Positions 23,112 through 23,554 of a stretch of DNA of 64,000 bases are shown piece after piece (positions within the stretch are counted from its first letter, which is position 1; each line of letters starts with the position of its first letter). The position numbers and the translations under genes are program-made. Below the pieces are notes generated by a model, which saw only the letters and a list, made by a program, of their open reading frames with translations, was not told where the DNA came from and ran no database searches. Location: positions 192,001-256,000 of the forward strand of contig OY762266.1 of assembly GCA_963665285.1 (NCBI GenBank). The letters run 5' to 3'. The DNA comes from Candidatus Poribacteria bacterium. GTDB taxonomy: Bacteria; Poribacteria; WGA-4E; PCPOR2b.

Positions 23112-23251
23112 AATTTCCTCCAAATATAAATAAATCCTTTCTCCCAGCATCGGGACTTAGGCAGACTCCTGCTAAATCCAAATAGAGATTAACTGGGGAA
23201 AGACAGAAATCAATCAGATTAAAAAAGTAGAGATATAAGTAAACACGTGGG

Positions 23252-23554
23252 TTAAACAGAAAAGACCGGTGGGGCACGACTGTGAATACTGCCATCGAGG
23301 ATTGTGGCAATGAAAGTAAATTTGATAGGGAGGTAAGTTGATATGCAGGCATCAAGAATGGTGATGTCAACAGTCGGGAGTTCTATTCCGATGTGGTGGG
23401 CACTAAGCAGGCAAGCAGAACAATCTGTCGAACCGTGGATAGTATGGTCGTGTTCATGGGGAATTGTAATAGCACTTATTGCCATCAGGGAATAAAAAAT
23501 GCCGATCGCAATTATCCAACTAGTTGGATTTATATGGATTCGATTGCTCTGCAA
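23252..23554 (-). CDS. DUF2946/CruR-like small leader protein with CxxC and C-terminal RAPP motif
   Basis: N-terminal hydrophobic helix, HEHDHxxH, CSAC, HH, ends HSRAPPVFSV; first ORF of the metal-uptake cluster; TTG start. Confidence 0.72.
   Translation of the reverse strand: MQSNRIHINPTSWIIAIGIFYSLMAISAITIPHEHDHTIHGSTDCSACLLSAHHIGIELPTVDITILDACISTYLPIKFTFIATILDGSIHSRAPPVFSV

Follow-up and report, generated by a model that had tools for sequence, protein, structure and literature searches.

A 64,000-nt stretch of a Candidatus Poribacteria genome (hereafter the window) carries a short ORF that lies between a promoter-like site and a group of putative metal-uptake genes and contains RAPP, a ribosome-arrest motif, close to its end. 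The locus raises the question of whether this ORF encodes an arrest leader peptide that senses a metal and, if so, which metal it would sense and by which route it would control the genes behind it. We give about an even chance to the complete answer developed below, namely a zinc-responsive arrest switch of the CruR/DUF2946 kind that would permit expression of an import operon under zinc scarcity and turn it off once the metal is bound. Unless stated otherwise, coordinates are window positions and features lie on the reverse strand.

Anatomy of the leader ORF and its promoter

The ORF spans positions 23252-23554 (100 aa, TTG start, TAA stop) and contains the predicted membrane helix, the His tract, CxxC and RAPP that the original prediction had attributed to it. 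An AGAGG ribosome-binding site precedes the weak TTG start (23552..23568), and TTG was also the start picked in 45 of 50 homologues by a Shine-Dalgarno (SD) heuristic. A predicted N-in/C-out membrane helix covers aa 10-31 (23462..23527), based on hydropathy (hydrophobic segment aa 13-31), charge bias and a helix at aa 10-30 in an AlphaFold model of low confidence (pLDDT 56.5). It is followed by the His tract HEHDHTIH (aa 33-40; 23435..23458), whose length differs between homologues, and by CSAC (aa 45-48; 23411-23422). Together with H54, six residues past the second Cys, the two Cys residues form a predicted metal site, C45-x2-C48-x5-H54 (23393..23422), with His at this place in 47 of 50 homologues. 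The HH motif proposed earlier (aa 53-54) is present, and conservation applies to its second His only. The arrest motif RAPP (aa 93-96; 23267..23278) lies 44 residues after CxxC and, as claimed, four codons ahead of TAA, leaving the tail VFSV. Among 54,429 stop-to-stop frames of at least 50 aa in this genome, 31 end in a RAPP-like word and five of these also contain CxxC; by inspection, a helix and a His tract occur only in the leader ORF among these five.

The sigma70-type promoter TTGTCA-18-TATAAT (23603..23632; -35 at 23627-23632, extended -10 at 23603-23608) matches the consensus at 11 of 12 positions. Three promoter-like sites were found against 3.7 expected in shuffles, and therefore this match by itself is not beyond chance. 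An identical -35/-10 pair precedes 22 of the 50 homologous leaders under a strict pattern, and it is this recurrence that upholds the proposed promoter. Contigs from RNA libraries overlap the leader in two of four runs of close sequence, all from one study; they span 23246-23529 (4 differences) and 23282-23456 (1 difference), carry no strand, level or end information, and may derive from DNA.

Conservation and family membership

Leader homologues were detected in 143 of 176 genomes of the phylum by a profile search (E ≤0.001). From 37 fetched loci and the window, 50 leaders from 32 genomes were collected in alignment A1. CxxC and RAPP were selection filters for A1, so their invariance in it is partly by construction; spacing was not a filter, and one filter match with a spacing of 68 was removed (51 to 50 leaders). 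Three of the 37 fetched loci yielded no leader under the filter (one in-frame stop, one CxxxC and one noise hit). The distance from CxxC to RAPP is 44 residues in 48 of the 50 leaders and 45 in the other two, whereas the helix and CxxC lie anywhere between 10 and 33 aa apart, a range produced by expansion of the His tract. The membrane helix is predicted in 50/50, and the net charge is negative past the helix in 49/50 and ahead of it in 0/50. Searching 1.84 billion representatives yielded 77 proteins; both motifs are present in 74 of the 78 sequences obtained when the query is counted, and the spacing is 42-46 in 73 of these 74, although the profile itself favours such spacing. Judged by this conservation, the leader is a real gene.

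Variant leaders were also observed. One (L051 10287-10601, genome G006) stops a single codon past RAPP with the tail DNA still there, and another copy (G022:C1 3652695-3652988) has an in-frame TGA. A third (L090 13519-13824, genome G026) combines CxxxC, 13 His residues and RAPP, and heads genes for a His-containing outer-membrane protein, ZnuA and an ABC-3 permease.

The leader protein does not match any Pfam model, DUF2946 (PF11162, gathering cut-off 23.7 bits) included, or any NCBIfam model, nor was it matched in a genome-wide PF11162 search. At loose thresholds DUF2946 is nevertheless the commonest Pfam match among its homologues, found in 10 of the 50 close leaders (best E 3e-4) and in 33 of a wider set of 68 (best E 5.5e-6), and Atlas neighbours of the leader at 0.94 include a cluster with 54% DUF2946. 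In anatomy the leader agrees with CruR (Bp2923) of Bordetella pertussis, in which CxxC and RAPP are 45 residues apart, changes of one or two residues are tolerated and control is lost at +5 (PMC9426467). Here the spacing is 44, RAPP is likewise three to four residues from a non-polar C terminus, and an export signal or N-in/C-out helix is predicted ahead of CxxC. Both leaders are also the first gene of a metal-homeostasis operon for import that includes a TonB receptor, with a long spacer (140 nt here, 162 nt in CruR) and a stretch of C over G at the ORF end. The protein is therefore CruR-like by motifs and spacing yet fails the formal Pfam test, and by sequence comparison it is a remote DUF2946/CruR relative overlooked by the Pfam model.

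Word usage in the proteome was counted in 4500 crudely called ORFs of this genome. RAPP occurs three times against 10.8 expected, the lowest of the 20 xAPP words, and RGPP twice against 8.3, the lowest of the 20 xGPP words; RAAP and RSPP are likewise low (0.37 and 0.40). This depletion fits stalling in this organism, and stalling motifs have been reported as depleted in proteomes (PMC12992588). EF-P is encoded in this genome. Taken together, the leader is very probably a true arrest leader.

The operon behind the leader

The first gene after the leader, with a GGAGG ribosome-binding site (23117-23121) and an ATG at 23111, encodes a His/acid-rich lipoprotein (22533..23121) of no named family, whose model matched generic Ig-like folds only. 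It is followed by a MerC-family membrane protein (22012..22410; E 2e-23), a LolD/MacB-type ABC ATPase with an FtsX/MacB permease (19944..21999; zrgBC-like), a second His-rich exported protein of no family (18964..19569), a DUF3299 protein and a YceI-DUF3299 protein (17211..18946), and a TonB-dependent receptor (14954..17221). The best match of the receptor is ZnuD (E 3e-56, against 6e-17 for a copper receptor), both below the curated cut-off, and no copper chaperone family was found among the eight operon proteins scanned. DUF3299 corresponds to ZrgE, part of a Zur-repressed operon of Vibrio parahaemolyticus that is induced 76-206-fold by zinc limitation (PMC9817125). As in zrgABCDE, a His-rich exported protein, an ABC ATPase, a permease and DUF3299 form one unit; in contrast, no ZrgA (DUF2796) match was found in the present operon, MerC, YceI-DUF3299 and the TonB receptor are added, and a leader stands here in place of a Zur box. 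The zinc-type character ascribed earlier to the cluster therefore agrees with its predicted zrg-like ABC/DUF3299 content and ZnuD-like receptor.

Among the 50 leaders, the next gene encodes the lipoprotein in 34 cases, the receptor in 14 and another protein in one, and one leader stands at a contig end. In 13 of 17 genomes of the same genus, a second cassette comprising promoter, leader, spacer and the first lipoprotein codons precedes the receptor gene, and family f3 has a separate cassette copy at this position. The window has no second cassette; its insertion site corresponds to 17120-17166 and, in a locus that has the insert, to L021 9577-10361, in a comparison that is unrooted. In one genome (G019), about 47 nt are repeated on both flanks of the insert, and a stopped remnant of the window-type receptor start is kept upstream of it.

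In three other genomes (L036, L037 and L034 in G029, G038 and G023), the leader operon extends into 420-470-aa and 660-680-aa genes (the latter with 21-33 His), and two of these operons also reach a gene of about 1045 aa. Judged by size, the uptake-type genes of these operons may be followed by an RND efflux set.

Zur sites and the zinc assignment

A gene for a Zur-like protein (125.8 bits; cut-off 167) is present in this genome, transcribed divergently from an AztC/ZnuA-like gene, and from their motifs we take the two proteins after the latter to be of the COG0523 type. A generic Zur consensus scan was uninformative, and the Zur matrix was built from local zur/znuA regions, whose palindromes share a 15-nt core with the Vibrio site (PMC9817125). 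This matrix scored 28.4 at the znuA-type promoter of this genome, which is a member of the training set, versus a best score of -14.4 at the leader promoter; this genome thus has Zur but no Zur box at the leader operon.

Relatives show a different arrangement. Two genomes (G033 and G039) have Zur and no detectable leader, and predicted Zur-type boxes scoring 20.0 and 15.1 stand before their orthologous receptor or lipoprotein gene; both belong to one genus and are 91% complete. In six genomes of family f3, seven cassettes contain the znuA-type Zur promoter as a copy of 84-90% identity, some 200 nt ahead of the leader. Zur was detected in five of these six genomes, two genomes with no Zur also lack the copy, and the copy is absent in the Zur-bearing G059 and G062. 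We considered whether these boxes serve the divergent gene, and rejected this because both the direction of the boxes and their match to the znuA-type promoter indicate the leader as their target. Of the 112 genomes of family f2, 105 have the leader and none gave a Zur match, with a query that matched only 2 of 14 control genomes and from which distant Zur proteins can escape.

A zinc-sensing version is probable because a few relatives have a predicted Zur site before orthologous genes instead of the leader, a swap that, as a sequence prediction, rests on a single genus with 91%-complete genomes. The earlier view of the leader as a metal sensor is in line with both its CruR-like spacing and this Zur alternation, and the ZnuA/ABC-3 genes headed by the variant leader of G026 are a further link to zinc, which is rather likely to be the main metal sensed.

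The Zur/AztC-ZnuA island lies at L060 1474-3181 (G000:C1 about 1763330-1765040) and also occurs in L065. Between families f1 and f3 the Zur of this island retains 88-96% identity although its presence is patchy (18/41), a combination that suggests transfer of the island.

Proposed mechanism

CruR arrest has been shown, with the third residue of the motif (Pro3) in the P site (PMC12992588). If the present leader stalls at RAPP in the same manner, its helix would already be inserted, and C45, C48 and H54, 41-50 residues from the P site (50 for C45 and 41 for H54), would stand at or just past the tunnel exit. The charge bias suggests an N-in/C-out orientation, in which case CxxC would sit close to the channel exit and the His tract outside. 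As long as zinc is scarce, the stalled ribosome would stay in place and shield the C-rich end of the ORF, and polymerase would pass the spacer hairpin and transcribe the lipoprotein, MerC, ABC, DUF3299 and TonB receptor genes. Zinc gathered by the variable His tract would bind CxxC-x5-H, and the resulting local folding may pull the chain and free the stall; the ribosome would end four codons on, and Rho may then load and terminate transcription in the spacer. In the largest family, f2, the tail, once released, may bind the ribosome-binding site of the next gene at a distance of 190-576 nt, in addition to Rho termination or in its place. Zinc-driven folding can free a SecM stall, at a shorter distance inside the tunnel (PMC4571824). 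That the metal turns the operon off is likely on this evidence.

Since the distance from the helix to CxxC is free and that from CxxC to RAPP is fixed, the metal site, and not membrane insertion, would set the pull. The original prediction had called the sensor translocation-coupled, a point that is not established: the signal sequence of CruR, which acts through Rho, is dispensable (PMC9426467), the signal of CutF is required for function (bioRxiv 10.1101/2025.02.05.636593), and the helix here stands 10-33 aa from CxxC.

Two possible outputs: Rho and long-range pairing

The spacer between leader and lipoprotein gene is 140 nt long (23112-23251), and the composition of its first 70 nt (C17 G6 T34 A13) is pyrimidine-rich and G-poor, as had been noted. 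A C-rich, G-poor and weakly folded stretch round RAPP and the stop codon (23189..23344) is a candidate Rho loading site, with C26/G9 in the 78 nt ending at RAPP and C17/G8 in the next 78 nt. The post-RAPP skew of C over G is equalled by 1.8% of 3861 gene ends and folding as weak by about 3% of 400, the skew being partly owed to the encoded amino acids. Its median is 0.27 in family f1, 0.33 in f3 and 0.15 in f2, the opposite of the order of anti-SD strength. A hairpin further on (23136..23203) is a candidate polymerase pause site; its base stem is paired at 89.7% in 31 spacers with no compensatory change, and the stability of the spacer fold is ordinary (z -0.97). No intrinsic terminator was found in the spacer, and a CutF-type stem-loop hiding the SD was not predicted there, the hairpin ending 15 nt before the SD. 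Rho is encoded in this genome, and the possibility of Rho involvement raised earlier is consistent with the rut-like composition. The C-rich unstructured stretch and the hairpin favour CruR-like Rho termination for the window copy, and on balance we lean slightly towards Rho as its main output.

A structured, riboswitch-like spacer RNA was considered and rejected: RNAalifold on the 31 spacers gave four weak pairs only, counts of named structures were within those of shuffles, and 265 of 500 shuffles reached the covariation score. Spacers in the first leader set range from 129 to 408 nt, and insertions are tolerated. Palindromic repeat-like insertions of 70-250 nt were observed in the leader spacers or 5' regions of L027, L031, L032, L033 and L056, either between the pyrimidine tract and the hairpin or within the hairpin.

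A second output emerges from the relatives. The codons after RAPP complement the SD region of the next gene, as was first seen in the initial leader set, and form a 13-nt tail (23254..23266 in the window) that acts as a putative anti-SD in many relatives. The tail-SD duplexes of 68 held-out leaders have a median energy of -12.35 kcal/mol, whereas 709 ordinary gene pairs give -4.0, and 34 of the 68 reach -12 kcal/mol or lower against 1.6% of controls; the control pairs come from this single genome, and related leaders are not independent. Pairs flanking the GGAG core number 386, compared with 366.5 (sd 5.6) after permutation, a count reached in 0 of 2000 permutations, and the tail codons are pairing-compatible synonymous choices. 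A ribosome stalled at RAPP would cover the tail with its footprint. With the tail masked, the start region is predicted to open at a cost lower by 5.5 kcal/mol (median of the 51 scorable leaders among the 53 in f2; spacers 190-576 nt), with a gain above 2 kcal/mol in 40 of 51. Such complementarity in f2 over 190-576 nt suggests long-range translational control. A tree-aware test of tail/SD covariation was not significant, with at most 8 independent pairs and 7 of 118 rows dropped for want of a clear downstream start, and no covariation was found in alignment A2.

In the window, the pairing register is still visible in the tail. The duplex itself is weak here (-3.6 kcal/mol), a value equalled or beaten by 59.5% of controls, and the predicted gain on stalling is 0.2 kcal/mol (median 0.08 in the first 48 leaders).

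Alternative explanations

One alternative keeps the zinc-released stall and moves the output of this copy to translation: the stalled ribosome would hide the tail from the ribosome-binding site of the lipoprotein, and Rho would act later, on untranslated RNA. It can draw on the strong duplexes of the held-out leaders, the flank pairs beyond all permutations, the masking gain in f2, the compatible tail codons and the register visible in the window, but the weak duplex and small gain here, together with the non-significant covariation tests, leave it rather unlikely. A different doubt concerns the metal, as the same switch could be released by copper, nickel or cobalt, which CxxC plus His also binds. 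All characterised DUF2946 leaders sense copper via Cys motifs, His-rich clusters precede HupE/UreJ genes (PMC9973294), MerC and His-rich lipoproteins are not metal-specific, Zur already controls an AztC/ZnuA-COG0523 locus in this genome, and a copper-binding domain is present in the NosD/NosL cluster 6-11 kb away. However, the Zur-type boxes or copied Zur promoters on orthologous operons, the zrg-like content, the lead of the ZnuD model over the copper receptor and the lack of a copper chaperone family in the operon all speak against another metal, and we regard this as unlikely.

The sign of the response could also be reversed. In a CutF-like polarity, metal outside the membrane would prolong the stall and keep the operon on as an efflux or detoxification unit; the helix is kept in all 50 homologues and CutF likewise needs export, the ABC genes resemble MacB/FtsX-type exporters, and MerC is a resistance family. 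Zur, however, represses in zinc and its predicted sites lie on the same operon in relatives, the receptor is of the importer type, and RAPP stalls intrinsically and resists EF-P (PMC12992588), unlike the polyproline of CutF; such a polarity appears highly improbable. It is very unlikely, too, that the leader acts with no metal control, either as a SecM/Apd-like monitor of membrane insertion or secretion or as a constitutive metal-binding membrane protein. In other bacteria, according to published accounts, Sec/YidC is monitored by RAPP peptides that carry export signals, and the helix is conserved here, yet a free helix-to-RAPP distance beside a fixed CxxC-to-RAPP distance, the lack of a sec or yidC gene among the recurrent downstream clusters and the copying of whole cassettes ahead of the receptor gene argue against such a role.

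Relation to known arrest leaders

The leader is probably a remote CruR-like peptide tuned to zinc. Unlike CruR, it has no Pfam match, adds a His tract and the conserved H54, and has a helix that looks uncleaved; zinc-type genes and Zur links take the place of copper genes, and many relatives have a long-range anti-SD, which the available part of the CruR literature does not describe. CutF of Rhodobacter capsulatus (PMC9973294) is similar in being an exported DUF2946-like leader whose stall governs access to the next ribosome-binding site and whose metal site is on the outer face of the membrane. It differs in its CxxxC and polyproline, in a copper-induced stall that turns a detoxifying oxidase on, and in an SD hidden in a local stem-loop of the spacer, compared with RAPP, a predicted metal-off logic and, in relatives, an anti-SD in the last leader codons hundreds of nucleotides away. 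SecM, ApdA, ApdP and other RAPP/RAGP arrest peptides are likewise small exported proteins, encoded upstream of the gene they regulate and with the arrest core close to their C-terminal end (PMC12992588; PMC10951233; PMC10987492); these monitor Sec/YidC, whereas the leader here has a metal motif at fixed distance and heads metal-uptake genes.

Parts of this picture are already in print, namely the family, the motif logic and the His-rich variants, which limits the surprise. CutF-like proteins with Cys, His or mixed sites have been described, with His-only clusters before Ni/Co genes (PMC9973294), and RAPP uORFs before TonB receptors and other metal genes have been surveyed (PMC12992588). According to Roy et al., no riboswitch is described for Cu or Zn, and CruR is the first uORF responding to a transition metal (PMC9426467); CruR was tested with Zn, which gave moderate cross-regulation (PMC9426467). 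We found no literature report of a zinc-sensing arrest peptide, in a search that covered subscription papers thinly and with supplementary tables that may list zinc genes. The word zinc is absent from the main text of PMC9426467 (in which Zn itself was tested), PMC9973294, PMC12992588 and bioRxiv 2025.02.05.636593. The original prediction that the combination is undescribed thus stands for zinc sensing by an arrest peptide, but not for His-rich CutF-like clusters or RAPP uORFs as such.

The present analysis adds two things: within a single phylum, predicted Zur sites alternate with the leader and a Zur promoter has been copied, and relatives carry a putative long-range anti-SD that this copy lacks. 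The anti-SD route goes beyond the earlier reading of the leader and is at odds with the published expectation that stem-loop control by such leaders is confined to short spacers (PMC9973294). If the zinc reading is true, it would fill the zinc side of the Cu/Zn gap, account for how the 112 genomes with no detectable Zur could control zinc import, and mean that one arrest scaffold can be retuned by extra His ligands. With so short a peptide and a fixed spacing, a reconstituted system would offer an inexpensive test. A broader version, which we advance tentatively and hold to be possible rather than probable, is a zinc-gated arrest switch found throughout the phylum, which would stand in for Zur as zinc sensor of the main import operon and would spread by copying of a cassette made up of promoter, leader, spacer and first target codons. 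Its single stall would have two outputs, an anti-SD of 12-13 bp acting across up to 576 nt in the largest family and Rho termination where, as in this genome, the pairing has decayed.

Neighbouring genes in the window

On the forward strand, head-to-head with the leader, a gene at 23760-24443 with a promoter-like site at 23641-23668 encodes a 227-aa exported protein ending in Trp. It has no Pfam or NCBIfam match, was seen at 22 loci, nearly always in this head-to-head arrangement, and is possibly an outer-membrane barrel tied to the leader locus. At a distance of 6-11 kb from the leader, a nos-like cluster (28999-34550, reverse strand) includes a copper-binding domain and a 1151-aa fusion of membrane repeats, NosD and an ABC ATPase; its further genes encode an ABC-2 permease, a NosL protein and a carboxypeptidase-regulatory-domain protein. 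On the other side of the operon, a membrane-linked spermidine-synthase-like gene (4981-6516) adjoins a Tat-type flavin oxidoreductase gene (3260-4948), both on the reverse strand and described from their translations.
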